Positions 18,819 to 37,616 of a DNA stretch of 44,261 bases are shown piece by piece; position 1 is the stretch's first letter; the number at the start of each line of letters is the position of its first letter. Location: the sequence record PQ433351.1. The stretch is one strand, 5' to 3'. Under the pieces are notes generated by a model. That model had not been told where the DNA came from. It ran no database searches and saw only the letters and a list, made by a program, of their open reading frames with translations. Source of the stretch: Escherichia phage vB_Ec-G9. A program made the position numbers and the translations under genes.

Positions 18819-21220
18819 TGGAAGTACAAGGTTCATTAGGTAGACAAATCCAAGGTATTAGCCAGCAGCCGCCAGCGGTACGCTTGGATGGTCAGTGCAC
18901 AGCCATGATTAATATGATACCAGATGTAGTGAATGGCACTCAATCACGCATGGGTACAACTCATATTGCAAAGATACTTGATGCGGGGACTGATGACATG
19001 GCTACTCATCATTATCGCAGAGGTGATGGTGATGAAGAGTATTTCTTCACGTTGAAGAAAGGACAAGTTCCTGAGATATTCGATAAGTATGGGCGCAAAT
19101 GTAATGTGACTTCACAAGATGCACCTATGGCTTACTTGGCTGAGGTGATAAACCCAAGAGAAGATGTGCAATTTATGACGATAGCTGATGTTACTTTCAT
19201 GCTTAACCGCAGGAAGGTGGTTAAAGCTAGTAATAGAAAGTCACCCAAAGTTGGAAACAAAGCCATTGTGTTTTGTGCATATGGTCAATACGGTACATCT
19301 TATTCCATTATAATTAATGGTGCTAACGCTGCTAGCTTTAAAACACCAGATGGTGGAAGGGCAGATCATGTTGAACAAATTCGAACTGAACGTATCACTT
19401 CTGAATTGTACTCTAAGTTGCAGCAATGGAGCGGTGTGAGTGACTATGAAATACAAAGAGAAGGTACTAGTATATTTATCGAGAGACGGGATGGTGCTAG
19501 CTTTACAATAACAACCACCGATGGTGCAAAAGGTAAGGATCTGGTGGCTATCAAGAATAGGGTTAGTTCTACTGACCTTCTTCCTTCTCGTGCGCCTGAA
19601 GGGTATAAAGTACAAGTGGGGCCTACTGGAAGTAAACCCGATGCCCGTTACTGGTTACAAGCGGAACCTAAAGAGGGAAACCTTGTATCTTGGCAAGAAA
19701 CAGTAGCTGCTGATGTATTACTTGGATTTGATAAAGGTACAATGCCTTACATCATTGAACGTACAGGTATCATTGACGGCATAGCTCAATTTAAGATTAG
19801 GCAAGGCGATTGGGAAGACCGCAAGGTAGGGGATGACTTGACTAACCCCATGCCATCCTTTATTGATGAAGAAGTTCCTCAGACAATCGGTGGGATGTTC
19901 ATGGTGCAGAACCGATTGTGCTTTACAGCAGGTGAAGCTGTCATTGCATCACGCACTTCCTACTTCTTTGATTTCTTCCGTTACACTGTTATCTCAGCTT
20001 TGGCTACCGACCCATTCGATATCTTCTCAGATGCGAGTGAAGTTTACCAGTTGAAACATGCAGTGACTTTAGATGGTGCTACTGTACTGTTCTCTGATAA
20101 ATCTCAATTTATCTTACCGGGAGATAAACCGCTGGAGAAGGCTAATGCCCTACTTAAGCCTGTAACTACTTTTGAAGTGAACAACAAAGTTAAGCCAGTT
20201 GCCACTGGCGAGTCTGTGATGTTAGCTACAAACGATGGTGCATATTCTGGTGTACGAGAGTTTTATACAGATTCTTATAGTGACACTAAAAAAGCTCAGG
20301 CAATCACGAGTCATGTGAATAAGCTAATCGAAGGTAATATTATAGGCATGGAAGCTAGCACCAATGTTAACCGTTTGCTTGTCACTACAGATAAGTACCG
20401 CAACATAATCTACTGCTATGATTGGTTATGGCAAGGAACAGACCGTGTACAATCTGCATGGCATGTATGGGAGTGGCCTTTGGACACAAAGGTACGAGGT
20501 ATGTTTTATTCTGGCGAATTACTTTACCTACTCCTTGAGAGAGGCAATGGTGTCTATCTGGAGAAGATGGATATGGGTGATGCATTAACCTATGGTTTAA
20601 ATGATCGCATCCGAATGGACAGACAGGCAGAGTTAATCTTCCAGCATTTCAAAGCAGAAGATGAATGGGTATCTGAACCGCTCCCTTGGGTTCCTACTAA
20701 CCCAGAACTTTTAGATTGCATCTTAATCGAGGGTTGGGATTCATATATTGGCGGCTCTTTCTTATTCAAGTACAACCATAGTGACAATACTTTGTCTACA
20801 ACCTTTGATATGTATGATGACAGCCATGTAAAAGCGAAGGTTATTGTTGGGCAAATTTACCCTCAAGAATTTGAACCTACACCTGTAGTTATCAGAGACA
20901 GGCAAGACCGTGTATCTTATATTGATGTACCTGTTGTGGGATTAGTTCACCTGAATCTTGATATGTATCCTGATTTCTCCGTGGAGGTTAAGAATGTGAA
21001 GAGTGGTAAAGTACGCAAGGTGCTAGCGTCAAACCGTATAGGTGGTGCTCTCAACAATACAGTAGGTTATGTTGAACCAAGAGAGGGTGTCTTCAGATTC
21101 CCACTGAGGGCTAAGAGTACGGATGCTGTTTATCGTATTATTGTAGAATCACCTCACACATTCCAGCTCCGCGATATTGAGTGGGAAGGGAGCTACAATC
21201 CAACCAAAAGGAGGGTCTAA
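18818..21220 (+). CDS. tail tubular protein B
   Basis: N-terminal GISQQP motif as in T7 gp12; size about 800 aa. Confidence 0.9.
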   Translation: MEVQGSLGRQIQGISQQPPAVRLDGQCTAMINMIPDVVNGTQSRMGTTHIAKILDAGTDDMATHHYRRGDGDEEYFFTLKKGQVPEIFDKYGRKCNVTSQDAPMAYLAEVINPREDVQFMTIADVTFMLNRRKVVKASNRKSPKVGNKAIVFCAYGQYGTSYSIIINGANAASFKTPDGGRADHVEQIRTERITSELYSKLQQWSGVSDYEIQREGTSIFIERRDGASFTITTTDGAKGKDLVAIKNRVSSTDLLPSRAPEGYKVQVGPTGSKPDARYWLQAEPKEGNLVSWQETVAADVLLGFDKGTMPYIIERTGIIDGIAQFKIRQGDWEDRKVGDDLTNPMPSFIDEEVPQTIGGMFMVQNRLCFTAGEAVIASRTSYFFDFFRYTVISALATDPFDIFSDASEVYQLKHAVTLDGATVLFSDKSQFILPGDKPLEKANALLKPVTTFEVNNKVKPVATGESVMLATNDGAYSGVREFYTDSYSDTKKAQAITSHVNKLIEGNIIGMEASTNVNRLLVTTDKYRNIIYCYDWLWQGTDRVQSAWHVWEWPLDTKVRGMFYSGELLYLLLERGNGVYLEKMDMGDALTYGLNDRIRMDRQAELIFQHFKAEDEWVSEPLPWVPTNPELLDCILIEGWDSYIGGSFLFKYNHSDNTLSTTFDMYDDSHVKAKVIVGQIYPQEFEPTPVVIRDRQDRVSYIDVPVVGLVHLNLDMYPDFSVEVKNVKSGKVRKVLASNRIGGALNNTVGYVEPREGVFRFPLRAKSTDAVYRIIVESPHTFQLRDIEWEGSYNPTKRRV

Positions 21221-21948
21221 TGGCTATAGGTTCTGCCGTTATGGCTGGTATGTCTTCTATTGGTAGTATGTTTACAGGCAGCGGTGCAGCAGCCGCTGCT
21301 GGAGGTTCTGCCGCAGCAGCAGGTGGTGGAGGCTTACTAGGTTCCGTGGGAGGTTTCCTAAGTGGTTCCACTGGTGGTTTCTCCAATGCAGGGCTTCTTG
21401 GTGCTGGCCTTCAAGGTTTAGGCTTAATTGGTAATCTCTTTGGCGGCAGTGATGAAGCCAAGGCAATGAAGAAAGCACAAGAAGAACAGTGGCGGCAGCA
21501 ACTTATTGCTACACAAGAAGCATACAAAACAGTAGCAGATGCAGAACGCTCTGCTGCTAAACAGTATCATGCAGATGCAATCAGTAATCAGGCTTCACTG
21601 CTACAGCAAAGAGCACAGGTTGCATTACTTGCTGGTGCTACTGGTACTGGTGGTAACTCTGTGTCTTCTATGCTGAATGACTTAGCAGCAGAAGGCGGAA
21701 GGAACCAGAGTACAATTATCGATAACTATGAGAATCAGAAGATTAACTTCACCAACCAGCTTAAGTCCATCCAACGTGGTGGTCAGATGCAGATGCGTGA
21801 GTTTAAGAAACCTTCTGCCGTGAGCACCTTGGTGCAAGGTATCCCGAGTCTGGCATCTGCCTATGTAACAGGTAGTAAGTCCGGCATGGCTTTAGGTAAA
21901 GCTTTAACTGATTCTCGTACATATTCATCTGGAACAAGAGGTATTTAA
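21220..21948 (+). CDS. internal virion protein A (Gly/Ala-rich N-terminus)
   Basis: Position after tail tube B; Gly-rich low-complexity N-terminus. Confidence 0.7.
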   Translation: MAIGSAVMAGMSSIGSMFTGSGAAAAAGGSAAAAGGGGLLGSVGGFLSGSTGGFSNAGLLGAGLQGLGLIGNLFGGSDEAKAMKKAQEEQWRQQLIATQEAYKTVADAERSAAKQYHADAISNQASLLQQRAQVALLAGATGTGGNSVSSMLNDLAAEGGRNQSTIIDNYENQKINFTNQLKSIQRGGQMQMREFKKPSAVSTLVQGIPSLASAYVTGSKSGMALGKALTDSRTYSSGTRGI

Positions 21949-24896
21949 TGGCAATTGAGCGACAAGCAGTACAAGGTCTGCCACAAGTGCAGGCCACTTC
22001 TCCTAATGTCATGACCTTTGCACCTCAGCGAGTTGGAGGTGTAGAGGCTGGCGTAGCTTCTACCTCCGGTAGTCGATTTATCGAAGATCTTATTCGAGCA
22101 GCCAGCAGTGTAGCTGATGTTACCACTGGTATCCTTAATCAGAAGATTGAGGAAGATAAGGTTGTTCAAATGGAACGGGCATATAACGGATTAATGCCTT
22201 CTGAGGATGCAACTCGTGGTGGCGCTCGTGCTAACATGCTTGTCAAAGCTCAACTGCTAGCTAATGATGAAGCAGCACGAATGAAAGACATGGCTACTCG
22301 TTTCCAAGGAACGGATGATGAGTGGACACAACTTATGGTTGACTCTCGTAATGAGATGCAGAATAAGCTGTTCCAGCAATACCCTGAGTTGCAAGGTGAC
22401 AAAGATACTATGCGTATGATCACTAATGTCTTCCAAGAACAGCAGCCTCAGATTTGGGCTACACGAACCCAGCATAAACTTGACCGTGAACAAGCAGACC
22501 GTGAGGATACCTTTGACGGGCGAGTGGCTTCTACTTGGGATTCTAATATTGACCCTGAAGCCTCTGGCTATGCTTTACAGGAACGAATCCGCGAAGGTCT
22601 TACTCAAGGATTACTACCTGAACAGATGTACAAGAAGTTAGTCCAGCGAGCAATTTCACTTGCACAAGGCGGTGATGTTAGCATGGCTGAAGCCCTGAAG
22701 TATGTGAAGGACGATAAGGGTGTTTCTGTTTATGCTAAGAATCCACAGCTTATCACAGCCATCACTAGTGGTAACGCAGTTTGGGCTAGGAATAATGTAG
22801 CTGATGTAACTCGTATGTCTTTCGAAGTTAAAGAATCCTACCTTGCAGGTGATTTAACTGATGAAGAATTGTTGGAACGAGCACAGCACATTAATAATCT
22901 GACAGGTAACTCTGTCTTCTCTAATCCAGAACTAGAGGCACTGATGCGCCAACGGGCTAAGCAGAATGCAGAGCTAGGTGCAATGCAGGATATGCGACGT
23001 GAGCTTTACTCCGACCGCCTGACTGGCTTCCAAGGTAAGACTGATAAAGAGAAGAAGGCTTACATTGATGTTATCAAACAAGATAGCCAACTTTATGCAG
23101 ACCAGCAAATCAAACAACGTGGCTTGGACCCTTACAGTCAAGAGGCTGAAGCTATTCGTGGTGCAGTGGAAGTGCAGCGCCTGCAATTCATGAACTCCAA
23201 AGGCTTAGTGGATGATACCTTTGAGTCTCGTATCAAAGCCATGGAATCTATGCTATCGCCTGAGCACTTTGCCAAGGGCGAACCACAGGAGTTGATGACT
23301 ATTCGCCAGTTGTGGGAACAGTTGCCAGAAGAGAGCCGAGGTGTCTTTGGTGACACGGTGAATGGCTACATGGATAACTACAACACTGCACTACAAATGG
23401 GAGAGACACCTTTGCAGGCTGCAAGGTTTGCGCGTGAAGCACAGCAGAAATTCTCTCGTACTGAGAAGGAAACCAAGAAGTTCAACTCAGCTATTGGAGA
23501 TGCACTGGATGAGGTATCTGGTGCTGGCTGGTTCGATGGTAAAACCGAAGTGTCAGACTTAGGTAAAGCTATTGCAGAAGAGGAGTTACGAGCTAAGGCT
23601 AATATGCTGTGGTCTAGTGGTATGCGTAACATGGATTCCATCAAGAAGGCTTTAATTACTTGGGGCAATAAACGCTACACTCAATCAGAGGATGCAAAGA
23701 CTTCCGGTGGCTATTTCATTAAAGGTGATTACACTTCTGCATCTGATATGCTTATGTCAGTTGGGAAAGGCGTAAACCCTACCGATGTACCTCTGGCGCT
23801 TGGTAGGTATGTAGAAACACAGATGCCAGAATTGAAGAAGGAACTTCAAGAGTGGGAAACTAAAGATGATATATACATTGATTACAATGAACAGAAAGGT
23901 ACTTTCGTGATTCGTGCTGGTGCAGCAGGTCGCCCTCTTTCTGGAGTAATCCCTGTAACCTCTTTAGATACCACTTCACTACTAGATTCTGCCTATCAGA
24001 AGAAAGTCGAGGAACGAGATAAAGGCGAGTATGTTCACCCTTATCGTACAGATATTGGTGCACAAGAGCCTATGCCAGCTAAACCAACTGCCAAAGATAT
24101 TGGTAAATTTGGACTAGCTAACTTCCTCATGTCTTCTGCTTTTGCTTCTGGTGAGAATCTGCCTTCTAACTTCGAGATTAACTATCGAGGTAATATGCAA
24201 CAATTCTATGACAAGCTAGCTATGGCTGAGAATAAAGATAAAGTTGGCTTTAATAAGGCAACTGGAACCTTTACTCCATATAAAGACGCTCACGGTGAGT
24301 CTATCGGTTACGGTCATTTCTTAACGGAAGAAGAGAAGCGAAACGGGTATATTAAGATTGGCGATGAACTAGTTCCCTATCGAGGGTCTATGTCTCAGCT
24401 TACAGAGAGCAAGGCTCGCGCTCTTATGGAGCAAGATGCTAAGAAGCATGTGCCTCCTACTCGTGACTGGAAGATTCCGTTTGACCAGATGCATCCTGCA
24501 CAGCAACGTGGCTTGATGGATTTAACCTACAATTTAGGTAAAGGTGGAATCCAGAACTCACCGCGTGCTCTTGCTGCATTCAAAGCTGGTAAGCTTACGG
24601 AAGGCTTTATCGAAATGCTGGGCACTGCATCAAGTGAAGGTAAGCGTATTCCTGGCCTACTGAAGCGACGCGCTGAGGCATACAATATGGCATCTGCTGG
24701 TGGTGTGCCTAAGATTACCGAAGTGGAGACTCGTGAAGATGGCTCCATGTGGGTTAGGTTTGGTGGACCTATGCCAGCAGGTTCTGTCTCGGCATGGACT
24801 CATAAACGTATTGGCGCGGATGGTTGGTATCAGGTTTATGAGGCTGCACCTACCAAGTTAGCTAAAGATTCTAAGGTAGGTAAAGTTAAGTTGTAG
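21948..24896 (+). CDS. internal virion protein B with C-terminal lysozyme-like (GH24) domain
   Basis: C-terminal PYKDAHGESIGYGHFLT and GLMDLTYNLG resemble T4 lysozyme YKDTEGYYTIGIGHLLT region. Confidence 0.8.
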   Translation: MAIERQAVQGLPQVQATSPNVMTFAPQRVGGVEAGVASTSGSRFIEDLIRAASSVADVTTGILNQKIEEDKVVQMERAYNGLMPSEDATRGGARANMLVKAQLLANDEAARMKDMATRFQGTDDEWTQLMVDSRNEMQNKLFQQYPELQGDKDTMRMITNVFQEQQPQIWATRTQHKLDREQADREDTFDGRVASTWDSNIDPEASGYALQERIREGLTQGLLPEQMYKKLVQRAISLAQGGDVSMAEALKYVKDDKGVSVYAKNPQLITAITSGNAVWARNNVADVTRMSFEVKESYLAGDLTDEELLERAQHINNLTGNSVFSNPELEALMRQRAKQNAELGAMQDMRRELYSDRLTGFQGKTDKEKKAYIDVIKQDSQLYADQQIKQRGLDPYSQEAEAIRGAVEVQRLQFMNSKGLVDDTFESRIKAMESMLSPEHFAKGEPQELMTIRQLWEQLPEESRGVFGDTVNGYMDNYNTALQMGETPLQAARFAREAQQKFSRTEKETKKFNSAIGDALDEVSGAGWFDGKTEVSDLGKAIAEEELRAKANMLWSSGMRNMDSIKKALITWGNKRYTQSEDAKTSGGYFIKGDYTSASDMLMSVGKGVNPTDVPLALGRYVETQMPELKKELQEWETKDDIYIDYNEQKGTFVIRAGAAGRPLSGVIPVTSLDTTSLLDSAYQKKVEERDKGEYVHPYRTDIGAQEPMPAKPTAKDIGKFGLANFLMSSAFASGENLPSNFEINYRGNMQQFYDKLAMAENKDKVGFNKATGTFTPYKDAHGESIGYGHFLTEEEKRNGYIKIGDELVPYRGSMSQLTESKARALMEQDAKKHVPPTRDWKIPFDQMHPAQQRGLMDLTYNLGKGGIQNSPRALAAFKAGKLTEGFIEMLGTASSEGKRIPGLLKRRAEAYNMASAGGVPKITEVETREDGSMWVRFGGPMPAGSVSAWTHKRIGADGWYQVYEAAPTKLAKDSKVGKVKL

Positions 24897-24913
24897 TACC
24901 TAACTCAAGGCTT

Positions 24914-24929
24914 GTCTCACATGTGAGAC
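24914..24929. repeat. 16-bp perfect palindrome GTCTCACATGTGAGAC (copy 4)
   Basis: Exact; flanks GCTTG...CAGGT; between the two large internal virion protein genes. Confidence 0.9.
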
Positions 24930-24960
24930 AGGTCTTTATGATAGGCACTATGGAGGATTT

Positions 24961-27900
24961 ATGGAACAAGACATTAAGACTAATTGGGCTGGATATGTCC
25001 AGTCTACTCCTGAGCCGTTTTCTATTGAGGCGGCTCCAGTATTGGCTCCTACGATACGCCAGCGTAATGAGTTACAAGAGCAAGTTCTTGAAGCTAAAGC
25101 TGACGCTGATATCTTAGGTGCTGTAGGTGCTGCCTTCCAGAATGAGTGGTTGGCATTCGGAGGCAAGCGGTGGTATGACCGTGCCACTGCTGATTTCACA
25201 CCTCAACCAGACTTTGAGATACAACCTGAGCAACGTGAAGCACTACGTTTCAAATATGGTACGGATATGATGCAGACAATCACTGAGGGTGTTCGTTCTG
25301 AGGATGAATTGAACTTCCGTATTCAGAATGCCGATGAAGACCTTGAGCGCAATAAGCGCATTGCTCAGGCTGGCTGGGTCGGCTCTGTGGCGACGATTGG
25401 CGCTGCTGTGCTTGACCCTGTGGGATGGGTTGCCTCTATTCCAACCGGTGGTGCCGCTAAAGTTGGACTCGTAGGCCGTGCTGTGCGTGGCGCTATCGCC
25501 GCTGGCGTGAGTAATGCCGCTATTGAATCCGTATTGGTCCAAGGTGACATGACTCGTGATTTAGATGACATTATGGTAGCACTAGGTTCCGGTATGGCTA
25601 TGGGTGGCGTTATTGGCGCTGTAGCGCGTGGTAGGGCCACTAAGCTCAGTGAGCAAGGGGATGACAGGGCTGCGAGCGTTGTGCGCAGTGCAGACGCAGG
25701 GGACCGCTATGTTCGTGCTGTTGCCGATGACAGTATCGGTGCGATGCGTGTTAAGGGCGCAGAGGTTCTCACTGAGGGTGTATTCGATATCTCCAGTAAG
25801 GGTGAAGACCTACTGAAAACCTTGCAACGAGAAGGTAATGCGATTGATATGACACCTCGCCGTTGGGCTGGAACTATGTCTGCCCTCGGTACTGTCGTGC
25901 ACTCATCTAAAGATGCAAGTATCCGAGGCCTTGGTGCTCGCCTGTTTGAGTCCCCGCAAGGCTTAGGTGCACAGAAGGCATCGGCTAGTCTCATGCAGAA
26001 TACTAACTTGAACCGTCTTAAATCTGCTGATATGAATCGTTTCAACGATGGGTTCGATTTATGGCTCAAAGAGAATAATATCAATCCGGTTGCAGGTCAT
26101 ACTAACTCTCACTATGTGCAGCAATATAATGAGAAGGTATGGGAAGCTGTACGCATCGGTATGGATGAGTCTACGCCTAAGTCTATCCGTATGGCAGCAG
26201 AGGGGCAGCAAGCTATGTATCGTGAAGCATTAGCATTACGGAAGCGCTCTGGTGAAGCTGGTTTTGAAAACATTAAAGCGGATGATAAGTATATGCCTGA
26301 TATCTTTGACACTATGAAAGCTCGCCGTCAGTTTGATAGGATAGGAAAGGATATAGATAAAGAAGACATCATCGAACTTTTCTCTCGTGCCTACCAGAAT
26401 GGCGCTCGTAAGATTCCAAAGGAAGCAGCAGATGAGATTGCACGAGCACAGGTAAATCGCGTTGCTGATGCTACCTTAACTGGAAAGCTTAGTTTTGAAA
26501 AGGCAATGTCAGGTCAGACTAAGGCAGAGTATGAAGCTATCATGCGTAAGGCAGGCTTCAGTGATGAAGAAATTGAAAAGATGGTAGAAGCTCTGGATAA
26601 CAAAGAAACCAGAGATAACATCTCTAACCGAGCTAAAATGAGTTTAGGATTAGATGTTACTCAAGAATACAATGGCATTCGTATGCGTGACTTCATGAAT
26701 ACCAACGTGGAAGAGCTAACAGATAACTATATGAAGGAAGCAGCAGGTGGCGCTGCATTGGCTCGCCAAGGCTTCTCTACCTATCAGGCTGCACTTAATG
26801 CAATTGACCTTGTAGAGCGAAATGCACGAAACGCGGCTAAGGATAGCAAGGCTAGTTTGGCATTAGATGAAGAGATTCGTCAGATGCGAGAAGGTCTTCG
26901 CCTGATTATGGGCAAGTCGATTGATGCAGACCCACAAGCTATATCTACTAAGATGATGCGTCGTGGTCGTGATATCACAGGTGTGCTTCGCTTAGGTCAA
27001 ATGGGCTTCGCACAGCTAGGTGAACTTGCCAACTTTATGGGTGAGTTTGGTATTGCTGCAACCACTATAGCTTTAGGTAAGCAATTCCGCTTTACATCTA
27101 AGGCTTTGCGGAGCGGTGATGGCTTCTTCCGAGATAAGAACTTGGCAGAAGTAGAGAGGATGGTAGGTTACATCGGTGAGGATAACTGGCTAACAACTAA
27201 GGGTGCACGTCCTGATGAATTTGGTGATGTAACCACAGTAAGAGGGATGATGGCTCACTTCGACCAATCCATGAACTCAATACGTCGTGCTCAAACCAAC
27301 CTATCACTCTTCCGCATGGCACAGGGTTCTCTGGAGCGAATGACTAATAGGCAAATAGCTTTGTCTTTCATTGACCACCTTGAAGGCAAGAAGATTATTC
27401 CTCAGAAGAAACTGGAGGAACTTGGTCTTACTCAGGAGGTCATGACTAACCTACAGAAGCACTATGATGCTAACTCTAAAGGTTCTGGCTTGCTTGGCTT
27501 TGATACAATGCCTTATGCCATGGGTGAAACTTTAGCTAATGCTATTCGTCGTAAGTCAGGTCTAATTATCCAACGTAACTTCATTGGTGATGAAGGTATC
27601 TGGATGAACAAAGCACTAGGTAAGACATTTGCACAGCTTAAGTCATTCTCTCTTGTATCTGGTGAGAAGCAATTTGGTCGAGGGATTCGCCACGATAAAA
27701 TTGGTCTTGCTAAGAAGACAGCTTACGGTTTTGCTTTGGGTTCAATAGTGTATGCGGCAAAAGCCTATGTGAACTCTATTGGGCGAGAAGACCAAGATGA
27801 ATATTTGGAAGAGAAGTTATCGCCTAAAGGGTTGGCCTTTGGTGCAATGGGTATGATGAGTACAACTGCTGTATTTAGTCTAGGTGGAGATTTCTTAGGT

Positions 27901-28158
27901 GGCCTAGGTGTTCTACCTTCTGAGTTAGTACAATCCCGTTATGAGGCTGGATTTCAGACTAAGGGTTTGATAGACCAAATACCACTAGTAGGTGTTGGTC
28001 AAGATGCATATCGTTTAGCAGCTTCTATAACTAAATACGCAGAGGGTGATACAGAAGGTGTAGATGTGGCACGTAGGGCTTTACGCTTAGTGCCTCTAGC
28101 TAATGTAATAGGAATCCAGAACGCATTGCGTTATGGCTTAGATGAACTGGAGGATTAA
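24961..28158 (+). CDS. internal virion protein C (ejection/core protein, 1065 aa)
   Basis: Size and position equivalent to T7 gp16; RBS GGAGG. Confidence 0.8.
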   Translation: MEQDIKTNWAGYVQSTPEPFSIEAAPVLAPTIRQRNELQEQVLEAKADADILGAVGAAFQNEWLAFGGKRWYDRATADFTPQPDFEIQPEQREALRFKYGTDMMQTITEGVRSEDELNFRIQNADEDLERNKRIAQAGWVGSVATIGAAVLDPVGWVASIPTGGAAKVGLVGRAVRGAIAAGVSNAAIESVLVQGDMTRDLDDIMVALGSGMAMGGVIGAVARGRATKLSEQGDDRAASVVRSADAGDRYVRAVADDSIGAMRVKGAEVLTEGVFDISSKGEDLLKTLQREGNAIDMTPRRWAGTMSALGTVVHSSKDASIRGLGARLFESPQGLGAQKASASLMQNTNLNRLKSADMNRFNDGFDLWLKENNINPVAGHTNSHYVQQYNEKVWEAVRIGMDESTPKSIRMAAEGQQAMYREALALRKRSGEAGFENIKADDKYMPDIFDTMKARRQFDRIGKDIDKEDIIELFSRAYQNGARKIPKEAADEIARAQVNRVADATLTGKLSFEKAMSGQTKAEYEAIMRKAGFSDEEIEKMVEALDNKETRDNISNRAKMSLGLDVTQEYNGIRMRDFMNTNVEELTDNYMKEAAGGAALARQGFSTYQAALNAIDLVERNARNAAKDSKASLALDEEIRQMREGLRLIMGKSIDADPQAISTKMMRRGRDITGVLRLGQMGFAQLGELANFMGEFGIAATTIALGKQFRFTSKALRSGDGFFRDKNLAEVERMVGYIGEDNWLTTKGARPDEFGDVTTVRGMMAHFDQSMNSIRRAQTNLSLFRMAQGSLERMTNRQIALSFIDHLEGKKIIPQKKLEELGLTQEVMTNLQKHYDANSKGSGLLGFDTMPYAMGETLANAIRRKSGLIIQRNFIGDEGIWMNKALGKTFAQLKSFSLVSGEKQFGRGIRHDKIGLAKKTAYGFALGSIVYAAKAYVNSIGREDQDEYLEEKLSPKGLAFGAMGMMSTTAVFSLGGDFLGGLGVLPSELVQSRYEAGFQTKGLIDQIPLVGVGQDAYRLAASITKYAEGDTEGVDVARRALRLVPLANVIGIQNALRYGLDELED

Positions 28159-31956: not shown

Positions 31957-32247
31957 ATGGCTAAATATGGTACTACAGGTTCTGTTACGGGTCAGGCTTT
32001 TCGAGTGAAAGCAGTACAAACTATTGCAACGGCAATTCCTATGCCTGTTGTTAAGGAAGCAGACCTTAAGAAGAAAGACCACCCTATCAACATCAAACAT
32101 TTATCAGGTAAACAGAAAGGTGCAATGGTTGCTCTTGAGAAAACTGACACAACCATGCATATTGCTGTTGCACGTGGCAGTGAACCAACAGACCCTTGGG
32201 ATGTAACTGGTATGGGAGTGGACGCTGTTACTCCAGCAGGGGAATAA
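31957..32247 (+). CDS. hypothetical protein, paralogue 2 of tandem pair
   Basis: RBS GAAGGAGG; paralogous to 31663..31938. Confidence 0.6.
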   Translation: MAKYGTTGSVTGQAFRVKAVQTIATAIPMPVVKEADLKKKDHPINIKHLSGKQKGAMVALEKTDTTMHIAVARGSEPTDPWDVTGMGVDAVTPAGE

Positions 32248-32249
32248 TA

Positions 32250-32594
32250 ATGCTTAATAAATACTTCAAGCGTAAAGAGTTCGCTTGTCGTTGTGGGTGC
32301 GGTACATCCACTGTTGATGCTGAATTACTACAGGTAGTCGCAGATGTGCGTGAGCACTTTGGTTCTCCTGTAGTTATCACTTCGGGGCATCGCTGTGCTA
32401 AGCACAATGCTAATGTAGGAGGAGCTAAGAACTCCATGCATCTTACTGGTAAGGCTGCTGACATTAAGGTACGAGGCATCTTACCTTCTGATGTACATAA
32501 GTATCTTACTGATAAGTACCAAGGCAAATATGGGATTGGTAAGTATAACTCCTTTACTCATATTGATGTACGTGACGGGTGTGCACGATGGTAG
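32250..32594 (+). CDS. endolysin, zinc peptidase M15-type (L-alanyl-D-glutamate or D-Ala-D-Ala peptidase fold)
   Basis: SGHRCAKHNANVGGAKNSMHLTGKAADI: H-x-H / D zinc-binding pattern of VanY/M15 peptidases. Confidence 0.75.
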   Translation: MLNKYFKRKEFACRCGCGTSTVDAELLQVVADVREHFGSPVVITSGHRCAKHNANVGGAKNSMHLTGKAADIKVRGILPSDVHKYLTDKYQGKYGIGKYNSFTHIDVRDGCARW

Positions 32595-33192: not shown

Positions 33193-33270
33193 TAAGATAG
33201 CGCCGTTCTTTTGAGCGGCCTATTACTAGCCAATCTTCATAGGGAGGGTTGGAAAGTAATAGGAGATAGC

Positions 33271-35169
33271 ATGGCTAAATTAACCAAACCTAATACTGAA
33301 GGAATCTTGCATAAAGGACAATCGTTGTATGAGTACCTTGATGCGAGAGTTTTAACATCAAAGCCGTTTGGTGCTGCAGGTGACGCCACTACTGATGATA
33401 CGGAGGTTATAGTTGCTTCATTAAACTCTCAGAAAGCTGTCACAGTCTCAGATGGTGTATTCTCTAGCTCTGGTATTAATAGTAATTACTGTAACTTAGA
33501 CGGTAGGGGTAGTGGCGTGCTAAGTCACCGTTCCAGTACAGGTAACTACTTAGTATTTAACAATCTACGTGCAGGTCGCTTAAGTAATATTACGGTAGAA
33601 AGTAATAAGGCGACTGATACAACTCAGGGACAGCAGGTATCTCTTGCTGGTGGAAGTGATGTTACTGTAAGTGACGTTAACTTCTCAAACGTTAAAGGTA
33701 CTGGTTTCAGTTTAATCGCATACCCTAATGATGCGCCACCTGATGGACTTATGATTAAAGGCATTCGAGGTAGCTATTCCGGCTATGCTACTAATAAGGC
33801 AGCCGGGTGTGTACTTGCTGACTCCTCAGTTAACTCCCTCATAGATAACGTCATTGCTAAGAACTACCCTCAGTTCGGAGCAGTAGAGCTGAAAGGTACA
33901 GCCAGTTATAACATAGTCAGCAATGTTATAGGGGCAGACTGCCAGCATGTAACTTACAACGGTACAGTAGGGTCAATAGCTCCCTCTAACAACCTTATCA
34001 ATGGGGTAGTGGCTAATAATCCTAAATATGCAGCGGTTGTTGCAGGCAAAGGTAGTACCAACTTAATCTCAGATGTGCTTGTAGATTTCTCAATCTCTGA
34101 TGCTAGTCAGGCTCACGGTGTTACAGTAGAAGGCTCTGATAACGTAATAAGCAATGTGCTTATGTCAGGATGTGATGGTACTAACTCTTCAGGACAAGCT
34201 CAAACTGCTACAATTGCGCGCTTTATAGGTACAGCTAATAACAACTATGCGTCTGTATTTCCTAGCTACAGTGCTACAGGTGTTATTACTTTCGAATCAG
34301 GTTCTACCCGTAACTTCGTAGAGGTAAAGCATCCGGGAAGGAGAAACGACCTTCTCAGTACTGCTAGTGCTATTGACGGTGCAGCTACTATTGACGGCAC
34401 TAGTAATAGTAACGTAGTGCACGCACCTGCCTTAGGGCAGTACATAGGTAGTATGTCAGGTAGGTTCGAATGGCGGATTAAGTCCATGTCACTCCCTTCA
34501 GGCGTTCTTACTTCTGCTGATAAGTACAGAATGCTTGGGGATGGTGCTGTGTCATTAGCTTTAGGTGGTGGCACTTCTTCTCAAGTTCGCCTATTTACTT
34601 CTGATGGTACTTCTCGGACAGTGTCCCTCACCAACGGTAACGTGCGTCTTTCTACCAGTAGCACAGGCTTTTTGCAGTTAGGTGCTGATGCAATGACCCC
34701 AGATAGTACTGGTACATACGCATTAGGTTCCGCCAGTCGAGCATGGTCTGGCGGTTTTACTCAAGCAGCATTCACTGTTACCTCAGATGCTCGGTGTAAA
34801 ACAGAACCTCTTACTATCTCAGATGCCTTACTGGATGCTTGGTCTGAAGTTGACTTTGTGCAGTTTCAGTATTTGGATCGTGTTGAGGAGAAGGGTGCAG
34901 ACTCAGCTAGATGGCACTTTGGCATCATAGCTCAGCGAGCTAAGGAGGCTTTCGAACGACACGGTATAGATGCACATCGCTATGGCTTCTTGTGCTTCGA
35001 CAGTTGGGATGATGTATACGAGGAAGATGCCAATGGCTCTCGTAAACTGATTACACCAGCAGGTTCCCGCTACGGTATTCGTTACGAGGAAGTACTGATA
35101 TTAGAGGCTGCGTTGATGCGGCGGACTATTAAGCGTATGCAGGAGGCACTAGCTTCCCTGCCTAAGTAA
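33271..35169 (+). CDS. tailspike 1 with beta-helix body and C-terminal intramolecular chaperone (peptidase S74-like) domain
   Basis: RBS AGGAG before ATG 33271; repetitive Ser/Thr/Asn/Gly-rich beta-helix-like body; C-terminal ~110 aa block (DARCKTEP...WHFGIIAQRAKEAF...GIRYEEVLILEAA) resembles the auto-cleaving chaperone domain of endosialidase/K5-lyase tailspikes, from memory. Confidence 0.7.
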   Translation: MAKLTKPNTEGILHKGQSLYEYLDARVLTSKPFGAAGDATTDDTEVIVASLNSQKAVTVSDGVFSSSGINSNYCNLDGRGSGVLSHRSSTGNYLVFNNLRAGRLSNITVESNKATDTTQGQQVSLAGGSDVTVSDVNFSNVKGTGFSLIAYPNDAPPDGLMIKGIRGSYSGYATNKAAGCVLADSSVNSLIDNVIAKNYPQFGAVELKGTASYNIVSNVIGADCQHVTYNGTVGSIAPSNNLINGVVANNPKYAAVVAGKGSTNLISDVLVDFSISDASQAHGVTVEGSDNVISNVLMSGCDGTNSSGQAQTATIARFIGTANNNYASVFPSYSATGVITFESGSTRNFVEVKHPGRRNDLLSTASAIDGAATIDGTSNSNVVHAPALGQYIGSMSGRFEWRIKSMSLPSGVLTSADKYRMLGDGAVSLALGGGTSSQVRLFTSDGTSRTVSLTNGNVRLSTSSTGFLQLGADAMTPDSTGTYALGSASRAWSGGFTQAAFTVTSDARCKTEPLTISDALLDAWSEVDFVQFQYLDRVEEKGADSARWHFGIIAQRAKEAFERHGIDAHRYGFLCFDSWDDVYEEDANGSRKLITPAGSRYGIRYEEVLILEAALMRRTIKRMQEALASLPK

Positions 35170-35254: not shown

Positions 35255-36967
35255 ATGCTTCAAAGATTAAGTGCTTACTTGGTGAAGTACAAGAGTAAAC
35301 TAACAGGTACTATTGAGCGCCTGCTATCTGATAAACTATCGGATACAATAGATGTTGCGGATTTTGGAGTTAATCCATCCTCTAATGACAACAGGCAAGC
35401 CCTTCAAGCTGCATTCAATGCGGTCAGACTGCTAGGCGGTGGTACTGTAGCAGTCACTAAAGCTGGCGAATATAAACTCAGTGGTACTGTTGAGATATTT
35501 GCTAATACACACTTCAAGGTTGCTAAAGGTGTAACATTTGTACGTGACTACGAAACAGGAGATACTCTATTCAGATTATCACAAGGGCAAGCTAGTAATG
35601 TAACAGTCAGTGGAGGTATCTATGAAGGCAATGGTCACACTAAGGGAGATACACCTTTTGTAGTATTTGCATCTACTAGTAATAATGATTTGAAGTTTGA
35701 AGGCATAACAGTTAACAATGTAGTGGACTACCACGCCATAGATTTAGCAGATTGGAACAACGTAGTTATTCGTGATTGTAAATTCCTAGGGTTTAAGAAT
35801 ACAGGCAGTCGTAACTTCTCAGAGGCTATACAGTTAGACCCAGGACTTATTACAGTAGGTCGCTATGTGCAGTCTAGTGGTTTACTGGTAGAGAATTGCT
35901 ATGCTGGCCCAAACCTTGATTCTGGATTTGGCGGGTATGGTGCTCTAGTAGGGAATCATGCATCAGCTTATGGTGTTCAAGATAACAACATTAGAATCCT
36001 AAATTGCACTACAGATGGTGCGCTCTTTGCAGGTGTACGTGTATTTAACTGGAAAAACTGGACAGTACGTGGTTGCACCTTTAGAAACTCTAATGCAAGA
36101 GGTGTTCATGTTACACCTGTCTCCTCTCAAACTAAACCGCAAGGAACTCGACAAGGTAGTGTTGTAGATTGTACTTTTGATGGCGTAAGAACACCAGTGC
36201 TAATTGCTGCACCATCTTGGCCTTTTACCGATATTAGTGACATTTGGCATGACCATATTGAAATTTCTAATAATATTATGATCCTCACAGAGGATGTATC
36301 CTATGGTGTAGATGCAAGGTGGTGTAAGAATTTAATTGTAAAAGGTAATACAGGCTCTGGTGGCTTAGGGTTAATCGGTTTACGCTTTGGGACAAAGTAC
36401 CACATCGAAGGTAATACTTGGGAAAACGGAAGAGGTAGTGGGATTTGGTTAAGTGAGTCTGATGCTACTACATTCATTGGTACTGGTTTATCAGGAGAAG
36501 GTATACTTAGTCGTAATATCTTCTCTAAATTAGGGCAACATGGTATTCATGTAAACTGCAAGGTTGGCGGTCTAGTGATTAAGGCTAATAATATGAAGGA
36601 AGTATCTACAGCTGAAGCAGGTAGGCACTTCATTAGCATAGACACAGGAGCTAACAACATCCTAGTAGAGGGTAATATTGGAGTAGATGGAGAAAGCCCT
36701 AACAAGCCAAGCCTTGGTATTAGTGTTACTTCTTCTTGCTCCAATATTAAACTAATTGGCAATGATTGCTATGGTACGCAAGCACCTCAGGATAACCAAG
36801 GAGTCGGTTCTAGTACGGTGATTGTTTATGGACTAAATGGCAATCCTACAACTTTAGGCGTAGGTGCACCTGTAGGCTCTTTAGCAACTAATATCAATGG
36901 GTCTGGTGGTAGTGCATTGTACGTTAAAAAATCTGGTACTTCTGCTAAAGGCTGGGTTGCAAAGTAG
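35255..36967 (+). CDS. tailspike 2, right-handed beta-helix (pectate-lyase-like depolymerase fold)
   Basis: Strong RBS AAAGGAGG; repeated NxxV / GNxG beta-helix-like motifs; no chaperone domain. Confidence 0.75.
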   Translation: MLQRLSAYLVKYKSKLTGTIERLLSDKLSDTIDVADFGVNPSSNDNRQALQAAFNAVRLLGGGTVAVTKAGEYKLSGTVEIFANTHFKVAKGVTFVRDYETGDTLFRLSQGQASNVTVSGGIYEGNGHTKGDTPFVVFASTSNNDLKFEGITVNNVVDYHAIDLADWNNVVIRDCKFLGFKNTGSRNFSEAIQLDPGLITVGRYVQSSGLLVENCYAGPNLDSGFGGYGALVGNHASAYGVQDNNIRILNCTTDGALFAGVRVFNWKNWTVRGCTFRNSNARGVHVTPVSSQTKPQGTRQGSVVDCTFDGVRTPVLIAAPSWPFTDISDIWHDHIEISNNIMILTEDVSYGVDARWCKNLIVKGNTGSGGLGLIGLRFGTKYHIEGNTWENGRGSGIWLSESDATTFIGTGLSGEGILSRNIFSKLGQHGIHVNCKVGGLVIKANNMKEVSTAEAGRHFISIDTGANNILVEGNIGVDGESPNKPSLGISVTSSCSNIKLIGNDCYGTQAPQDNQGVGSSTVIVYGLNGNPTTLGVGAPVGSLATNINGSGGSALYVKKSGTSAKGWVAK

Positions 36968-37154: not shown

Positions 37155-37616
37155 ATGGAAGTTTGGAGGCCTATTGCTGGTATACCAGATTACATGGTTT
37201 CCTCCTTTGGTCGTGTTAGATCTCATAAAAGAGGTAAGGTTACTATACTAAACCCTCCGCACGACAAAGGAGGTTATCGTAATGTTGTGCTACGTGTTAA
37301 TGGTGAAAAGATAAATCGCAAGGTACATAGGCTTGTGGCAGAGGCTTTCTTACCTAACCCTCACGGTTTACCTCAAGTAAATCACAAGGATGAAGTAAGA
37401 GACAATAATCATGTAAGTAATCTGGAGTGGTGTGATTGTGCATACAACGTAGATTACTCTCAAGCAGCTACTTATACTGTGATGTGCCCTAAAGGTAATA
37501 TCTTAGTAGTAAGGAATGTGGCTAAGTTTTGTAGGGAAAACGGATTAAGCAGTGGTTCTTTTACAGATATGCTTAAGGGAAGACGTAAGCAACATAAGGG
37601 TTATCGCTTAGTGTAA
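37155..37616 (+). CDS. HNH homing endonuclease (NUMOD4 + HNH)
   Basis: WRPIAGIPDYMVSSFGRV (NUMOD4-like) and VNHKDEVRDNNHVSNLEW (HNH). Confidence 0.8.
   Translation: MEVWRPIAGIPDYMVSSFGRVRSHKRGKVTILNPPHDKGGYRNVVLRVNGEKINRKVHRLVAEAFLPNPHGLPQVNHKDEVRDNNHVSNLEWCDCAYNVDYSQAATYTVMCPKGNILVVRNVAKFCRENGLSSGSFTDMLKGRRKQHKGYRLV

Follow-up and report, generated by a model that had tools for sequence, protein, structure and literature searches.

The closest described relatives of the gene considered here belong to phages K1E and K1-5, whose gp35 is characterized in a passage of PMC8954989 as a gp15-like protein carrying the lysozyme activity which in T7 resides on gp16; passages of PMC3082699 (citing Lavigne 2006) and PMC5380687 say the same of the virion lysozyme and T7 gp16. 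According to Table 2 of PMC5380687, which cites Moak & Molineux 2004, SP6 gp36 (107 kDa) and a 109-kDa K1-5 protein are virion lysozymes detected by zymogram, and excerpts of PMC5380687 and PMC4837284 attribute virion muralytic activity to SP6 gp36. Passages of PMC5380687 and PMC8954989 (citing Leiman 2007) place these proteins in the core of the virion and describe their ejection at infection. Of the 127 Autographivirales that carry a muralytic domain, 86 have it N-terminally on the gp16-like protein and 31 C-terminally on the gp15-like protein (bioRxiv 10.64898/2026.05.18.726046). The same preprint visualized the lysozyme in a phiKMV-like virion, proposed that the phiKMV-like enzyme cuts peptidoglycan during ejection, and located the lysozyme of the phiKMV-like phage Ar-KM at an ejectosome position analogous to that of the T7 gp16 SLT domain. 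Here, we describe the corresponding gene, gene 35, in a 44,261-nucleotide stretch of DNA from Escherichia phage vB_Ec-G9 (PQ433351.1), hereafter the window.

Overall, our analysis makes it very likely that the product of this gene, gp35, is the middle internal-core ejection protein of a K1-5/K1E-like Vectrevirus and carries near its C-terminus a GH24 muramidase that opens the peptidoglycan at entry. The gp35 lysozyme and its contrast with T7 gp16 are real and were correctly interpreted in a preliminary description of this DNA; both are already known, from literature since about 2004. The gene, its parts and the codons of the residues discussed below are as follows.

21948 to 24896, plus strand: gene 35-type open reading frame (ORF) of 982 amino acids, an internal virion (ejection) protein with a lysozyme domain (ORF list, identity to K1-5, phrog_4290).
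21948 to 24164, plus strand: N-terminal part of about 739 amino acids without a recognisable domain, presumed to form the tunnel or core (gene order and literature, PMC8954989).
24165 to 24692, plus strand: GH24 (T4-lysozyme-like) muramidase domain, gp35 residues ~740-915.
24228 to 24230, plus strand: codon of E761, which corresponds to Glu11 of T4 lysozyme and is the putative general acid of catalysis (helix end, MAFFT, homologue conservation).
24285 to 24287, plus strand: codon of D780, equivalent to Asp20 of T4 lysozyme (HMMER alignment).
24300 to 24302, plus strand: codon of S785, equivalent to Thr26 of T4 lysozyme (HMMER alignment).
24693 to 24893, plus strand: conserved beta-rich C-terminal tail of about 65 amino acids, gp35 residues ~916-982 (model strands, invariant residues).

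Across its whole length, the ORF matches gene 35 of K1-5, as well as dozens of Vectrevirus genomes, with 98.9-99.0% nucleotide identity. The gp35 proteins of K1-5 and K1E are essentially the same protein as that of the window, and the K1-5 gene (98.9% identity) likewise encodes 982 amino acids between the same neighbours; only a few substitutions set the protein of the window apart, such as A760 beside the catalytic Glu in the window, which is D in K1-5. Residues 1-982 align to positions 1-969 of the 969-position profile phrog_4290, 'lysozyme domain-containing protein' (E=0), which is also the RefSeq product name. By position, gp35 is the equivalent of T7 gp15, SP6 gp36 and phiKMV gp36.

Translation showed that nucleotides 24228-24750 of the plus strand, the span given for the lysozyme-like domain in the preliminary description, are open and in frame with the 982-codon ORF. 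Both of the motifs quoted there fall inside this span: PYKDAHGESIGYGHFLT corresponds to gp35 residues 777-793 (nucleotides 24276-24326) and GLMDLTYNLG to residues 855-864 (nucleotides 24510-24539). The domain search that it proposed as a check placed Pfam family PF00959 (Phage_lysozyme) on residues 776-910 (profile positions 9-124 of 125) with an E-value of 2.2e-10 and, at 41.4 bits, clears the curated family threshold (gathering cut-off 22.3). Among Protein Data Bank (PDB) chains, a single-sequence HMMER query aligned residues 777-890 to residues 17-133 of T4 lysozyme (E 5.6e-4). With a profile of seven family sequences that excluded phiKMV, the T4 lysozyme match rose to an E-value of 1.8e-6, and the best 60 listed matches of this profile were all T4 lysozyme variants. 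Judged from sequence comparison, the match to the T4 lysozyme family is well above chance level. In the HMMER alignment, Y778-K779-D780 of gp35 lies on Y18-K19-D20 of T4 lysozyme and S785-I-G-Y-G-H on T26-I-G-I-G-H, with a conservative Ser for Thr.

The predicted structure points in the same direction. A word-indexed search returned 3 homologous proteins and a profile query 20; an AlphaFold model of the domain built from a single sequence was not usable (predicted local distance difference test score, pLDDT, 49), and the model built from a 21-sequence alignment reached a pLDDT of 88.3 and a predicted template modelling score of 0.82. This latter model has the two-lobed alpha+beta fold of GH24/PF00959 lysozymes, and its Foldseek matches include T4 lysozyme, phage 21 R and the T4 gp5 spike. 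Taken together, these data support the assignment of gp35 residues ~740-915 to a T4-lysozyme-type (GH24) domain in which the catalytic residues are kept.

The boundaries of the domain differ from those first drawn. Position 24228 is the first base of the E761 codon, so a start at this point cuts off the preceding helix, and the end of the earlier span, at residue 934, runs into the separate beta-rich tail, the lysozyme domain ending at about residue 915. Therefore, the domain itself stands but its strictly C-terminal placement does not, as residues 916-982 come after it. In the model, the tail consists of strands with a pLDDT above 90, and D931, G932, G959, W960, L971 and G978 are invariant among homologues. 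No Pfam family matched the tail at E<=10, and no NCBIfam family matched it.

The catalytic residues, on whose conservation the preliminary description had staked its claim, are conserved on alignment: E761, D780 and S785 correspond to E11, D20 and T26 of T4 lysozyme. The first of these is less obvious than the others because it lies 19 residues ahead of D780, compared with 9 in T4 lysozyme. However, E761 closes the first helix in the model (helix 11-32 of the fragment), just as E11 does in T4 lysozyme, and in the MAFFT alignment it falls on the Glu of the canonical 'EG' motif of 17 other PF00959 proteins, with the additional residues treated as insertions. It is unchanged in all seven Molineuxvirinae-type homologues, and E occupies this position in 79 of the 82 homologues that cover it. 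The neighbouring N762 is matched by N in 78 of 82 covered homologues, so that 'E-N' replaces the canonical GH24 'E-G'. The D780 position is acidic in 84 of 140 covered homologues (D in 44, E in 40), and the S785 position holds T or S in 119 of 154. From the helix end, the MAFFT alignment and the conservation among homologues, we conclude that the triad is present with a non-canonical spacing. About ten residues ('NKDKV...NKATGT') are inserted between the catalytic Glu and strand 1 of the domain. The 'E-N' motif and this insertion ahead of the first strand, both encoded within 24228-24290 of the window (gp35 residues 761-781), can serve as marks of the sub-family.

T4 lysozyme (gpe) and the lysozyme domain of T4 gp5 share the fold and the set of catalytic residues with gp35, and gp5 is also virion-borne at entry. 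In contrast, gp35 has only ~20% identity to T4 lysozyme, with the ten-residue insertion after the catalytic Glu and Ser for Thr26, and it sits in a podovirus core protein, whereas the T4 enzymes are part of the baseplate spike or a free endolysin. Asp20 and Thr26 of T4 lysozyme position the hydrolytic water. This bears on the possibility that gp35 cuts the same bond as a lytic transglycosylase, leaving a 1,6-anhydro-N-acetylmuramic acid product as phage lambda R of the same fold does, instead of hydrolysing it. We regard this as improbable: the best matches, in structure as in sequence, are to GH24 muramidases of the hydrolytic kind (T4 lysozyme, P22 lysozyme, RrrD and PHAb11), and the equivalents of both water-positioning residues are present in gp35.

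Several observations weigh against a working muramidase on a gp15-type protein. The triad is spaced E761-(18)-D780-(4)-S785 in place of the canonical E-(8)-D-(5)-T, so that 18 residues and not 8 separate E from D, and 4 and not 5 separate D from S. The assignment of E761 as the catalytic acid is putative, coming from alignment and from the helix position in the model. Over the wider homologues, just ~60% have an acidic residue at the D780 position. Additionally, the N-terminal 739 amino acids have no similarity to T7 gp15 that could be detected (hhalign probability 0.25% with the seven-sequence profile, negative hmmsearch domain scores).

The first of these points, together with Ser in place of Thr26 and the variable Asp position, could be taken to mean that the lysozyme fold is catalytically dead and serves as a structural or peptidoglycan-binding part of the ejectosome. 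However, E761 is nearly invariant, the 'EN...G' motif is kept, and the residues at D780 and S785 are chemically conservative. The SP6 and K1-5 homologues are reported to be active in zymograms (PMC5380687, citing Moak & Molineux 2004), and the gp16 homologue of the window offers no alternative muralytic domain. A dead enzyme is therefore very improbable, and the non-canonical spacing is a variant inside the GH24 fold and no ground for exclusion from it.

As for the N-terminal part, Pfam returned no match to it even at E<=10 and NCBIfam no family, and no gp15 chain was among the matches listed in the PDB profile searches. Against phiKMV gp36, hhalign gave a marginal collinear match (residues 482-584 on 481-605, E 0.003, probability 10%). 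In published trees, the gp15 homologues of the SP6 group stand apart from T7 (PMC8954989). Because homology to T7 gp15 is not detectable in this part of the protein, we infer its role in a periplasmic tunnel from synteny and the literature.

The gene order also supports a muramidase on an ejected core protein. A nozzle gene (PF25675) is followed by a gp14-like gene (PF24072), gene 35 and a gp16-like gene (phrog_342), and the genes flanking gene 35 are these.

21226 to 21948, plus strand: gp14-like internal virion protein, equivalent to K1-5 gene 34 (PF24072 T7_gp14, E 9.7e-33; phrog_805).
24961 to 28158, plus strand: gp16-like internal virion protein of 1065 amino acids, equivalent to K1-5 gene 36 (phrog_342, BLASTP to T7 gp16).

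Gene 35 lies between the gp14-like and gp16-like genes, the position of gp15; therefore, gp35 is the middle one among the three core proteins that are ejected, and the lysozyme fused to it is inside an ejected core protein, as the preliminary description had held. The name used there, 'internal virion protein B', is ambiguous. In T7 nomenclature, 'internal virion protein B' is gp14 and 'C' is gp15, so the position of gp35 is that of 'C'; the label 'B' presumably follows the naming used in phiKMV-type annotations.

The contrast drawn earlier with T7, whose muralytic domain is at the N-terminus of gp16, was confirmed on both sides. The SLT domain (PF01464) was found on residues 15-127 of T7 gp16, used as a control, with an E-value of 1.7e-31, and was absent from the gp16-like protein of the window at E<=1. 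Residues 23-1064 of the latter align to positions 194-1227 of the 1235 in phrog_342, which leaves the first ~193 positions of the profile without a counterpart, and BLASTP aligned residues 89-363 to 275-572 and residues 885-1011 to 1100-1253 of T7 gp16. The gp16-like protein thus lacks the ~190 N-terminal residues of T7 gp16, the SLT domain included. According to PMC8954989 (citing Moak & Molineux 2000), the transglycosylase motif of T7 gp16 matters for cells in stationary phase or at low temperature. Several gp16-like homologues bear the database name 'internal virion protein with endolysin domain', which is inherited from PHROG and misleading for this clade. The gp35 lysozyme and the T7 gp16 SLT domain share the same role, muralytic activity on an ejected core protein, but they differ in family (PF00959 and PF01464), in the protein that carries them (gp15 and gp16 position) and in their place within it (near the C-terminus and at the N-terminus). 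Podoviruses therefore put the wall-cutting enzyme on different ejected proteins, with gp16 as the carrier in T7 and the gp15-position protein in phiKMV and in the phage described here; that the DNA-ejection machinery evolves as a mosaic is a point already made in the literature.

From these data, we propose a putative mechanism for the entry step. At infection, the core proteins would exit the capsid via the portal and tail. An opening in the outer membrane would be made by the gp14-like protein, and gp35 would extend the channel over the periplasm, as has been shown for the T7 proteins and in phiKMV-like phages. The gp35 lysozyme, judging by its homology, would locally cleave the bonds that link N-acetylmuramic acid to N-acetylglucosamine in the peptidoglycan, with E761 acting as the general acid and D780 and S785 positioning the water, as E11, D20 and T26 do in T4 lysozyme. 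The cut would allow the channel and the gp16-like protein to reach the inner membrane. In this way, gp35 would take over the job of the N-terminal SLT transglycosylase of T7 gp16, which its own gp16 homologue lacks.

A role of the domain as the phage endolysin, lysing the cell from within at the end of infection instead of acting at entry, is the least probable of the alternatives: some homologue records are labelled 'putative endolysin', 'putative soluble endolysin' or 'tail lysin', and there are weak partial matches to the 'endolysin' families phrog_7 and phrog_31077, but the domain is the C-terminal part of a 982-residue protein inside the gp14/gp15/gp16 core operon, reviews count those of SP6 and K1-5 among the virion-associated proteins (PMC5380687), and the genome encodes a holin and an M15 peptidase of its own, so that this function does not call for gp35. 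These two genes are candidates for the lysis genes used at the end of infection, and the M15 protein (SP6 gp46 and its K1E and K1-5 counterparts) has been suggested as the endolysin (PMC4837284).

29130 to 29324, plus strand: holin (PF10746 Phage_holin_2_2, E 1.5e-27).
32196 to 32594, plus strand: Peptidase M15 protein, the likely true endolysin (PF08291 Peptidase_M15_3, E 9.7e-33).

For the window, the finding matters chiefly for correct annotation, with gp35 as a virion-associated lysin and not an endolysin; virion lysins of this kind are also of some interest as enzybiotic parts.

SP6 gp36 (Zindervirus) has the same architecture and gene position as gp35; the two proteins are 42% identical as a whole and 63% identical in their C-terminal 253 amino acids, and SP6 gp36 shares the EN motif, the hairpin insert and the beta tail; it comes from another genus and host, and its N-terminal part is more divergent. 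The architecture is found across Molineuxvirinae, in SP6 and in Proteus, Klebsiella, Pectobacterium and Erwinia phages as well as a Vibrio phage. The phiKMV-type proteins (phiKMV gp36, with its lysozyme gp36C; Ar-KM gp42; the 'Internal virion protein' of PDB entries 28sd, 9sfd and 9sfn) are also ejection proteins at the gp15 position with a T4-lysozyme-like domain near the C-terminus. With its lysozyme at residues 740-915 of 982, gp35 shows the phiKMV-type arrangement of a long helical N-terminus and a lysozyme in the last ~250-300 residues, configuration (ii) of bioRxiv 10.64898/2026.05.18.726046. However, phiKMV gp36 has the canonical Glu-Asp spacing (FEAYRGEAYKD) and lacks both the hairpin insert and the beta tail. 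The family profile A1 scored T4 lysozyme at 29.6 bits, compared with 6.6 bits over 19 residues for phiKMV gp36C, and Pfam did not detect PF00959 in phiKMV gp36. A strong PDB match to 28sd, 9sfd and 9sfn was discarded, as phiKMV gp36 was in the profile that produced it and the match arose by construction.

On these sequence grounds, gp35 and phiKMV gp36 share an architecture but probably not a lysozyme lineage. The bit scores and the silence of Pfam on phiKMV gp36 suggest, but do no more than suggest, that the two gp15-position lysozymes may come from different GH24 lineages fused independently. The lysozyme and tail also occur behind unrelated acidic N-terminal regions in the metagenomic proteins P0016, P0029, P0036 and P0051 (336-436 amino acids), and because the pair is found on such short, unrelated regions in metagenomic phage proteins, it could be a separate mobile module. 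We tentatively speculate, as a possibility that is on balance rather doubtful, that the SP6/K1-5-type lysozyme is a separate GH24 sub-lineage, marked by 'E-N', the 10-residue insertion and an obligatory beta tail of ~65 amino acids, and that it was fused as a mobile module to the gp15-position protein independently, rather than being a diverged phiKMV gp36C. If so, the beta tail would be a functional partner of the lysozyme, for instance in peptidoglycan binding or in docking within the core or ejectosome.

Some minor features of the surrounding DNA were also noted. The gp14-like gene is 723 nucleotides long in the K1-5 annotation (gene 34), and the mechanical ORF list starts its counterpart in the window at 21181. 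Its stop codon shares one base with the ATG of gene 35 at 21946-21950 (TAATG), an overlap that suggests translational coupling of the core-protein genes. In Klebsiella phage vB_KpnP_ZK1, the gp14-like gene upstream of the lysozyme protein (ZK1_15, L008 675-1319) is labelled 'peptidoglycan lytic exotransglycosylase', which looks like a mis-annotation. In the gap between the stop of gene 35 (24896) and the ATG of gene 36 (24961), a near-perfect hairpin, CTTGTCTCA-CATG-TGAGACAGG, lies at 24911-24932 and is followed by TCTTTAT. A consensus terminator scan of the gap did not call this hairpin, and no sigma-70 consensus was found there either. A phage promoter in the gap was considered and rejected on these negative results and because ATAGGCACTATGGAGG, downstream of the hairpin, occurs just once in the window; the GGAGG within it resembles a ribosome-binding site for gene 36.

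Further downstream, two tailspike genes, at 33211-35169 (endosialidase-chaperone, Peptidase_S74) and 35255-36967 (beta-helix), are followed at 37155-37616 by an ORF of 153 amino acids with NUMOD4, HNH_3 and I-HmuI NUMOD-like domains, a probable homing endonuclease. An ORF of 123 amino acids at 39239-39610 matches the Ocr DNA-mimic family (PF08684, E 6e-42); therefore, compared with the K1-5 record, the window is circularly permuted and has the early genes at its 3′ end.

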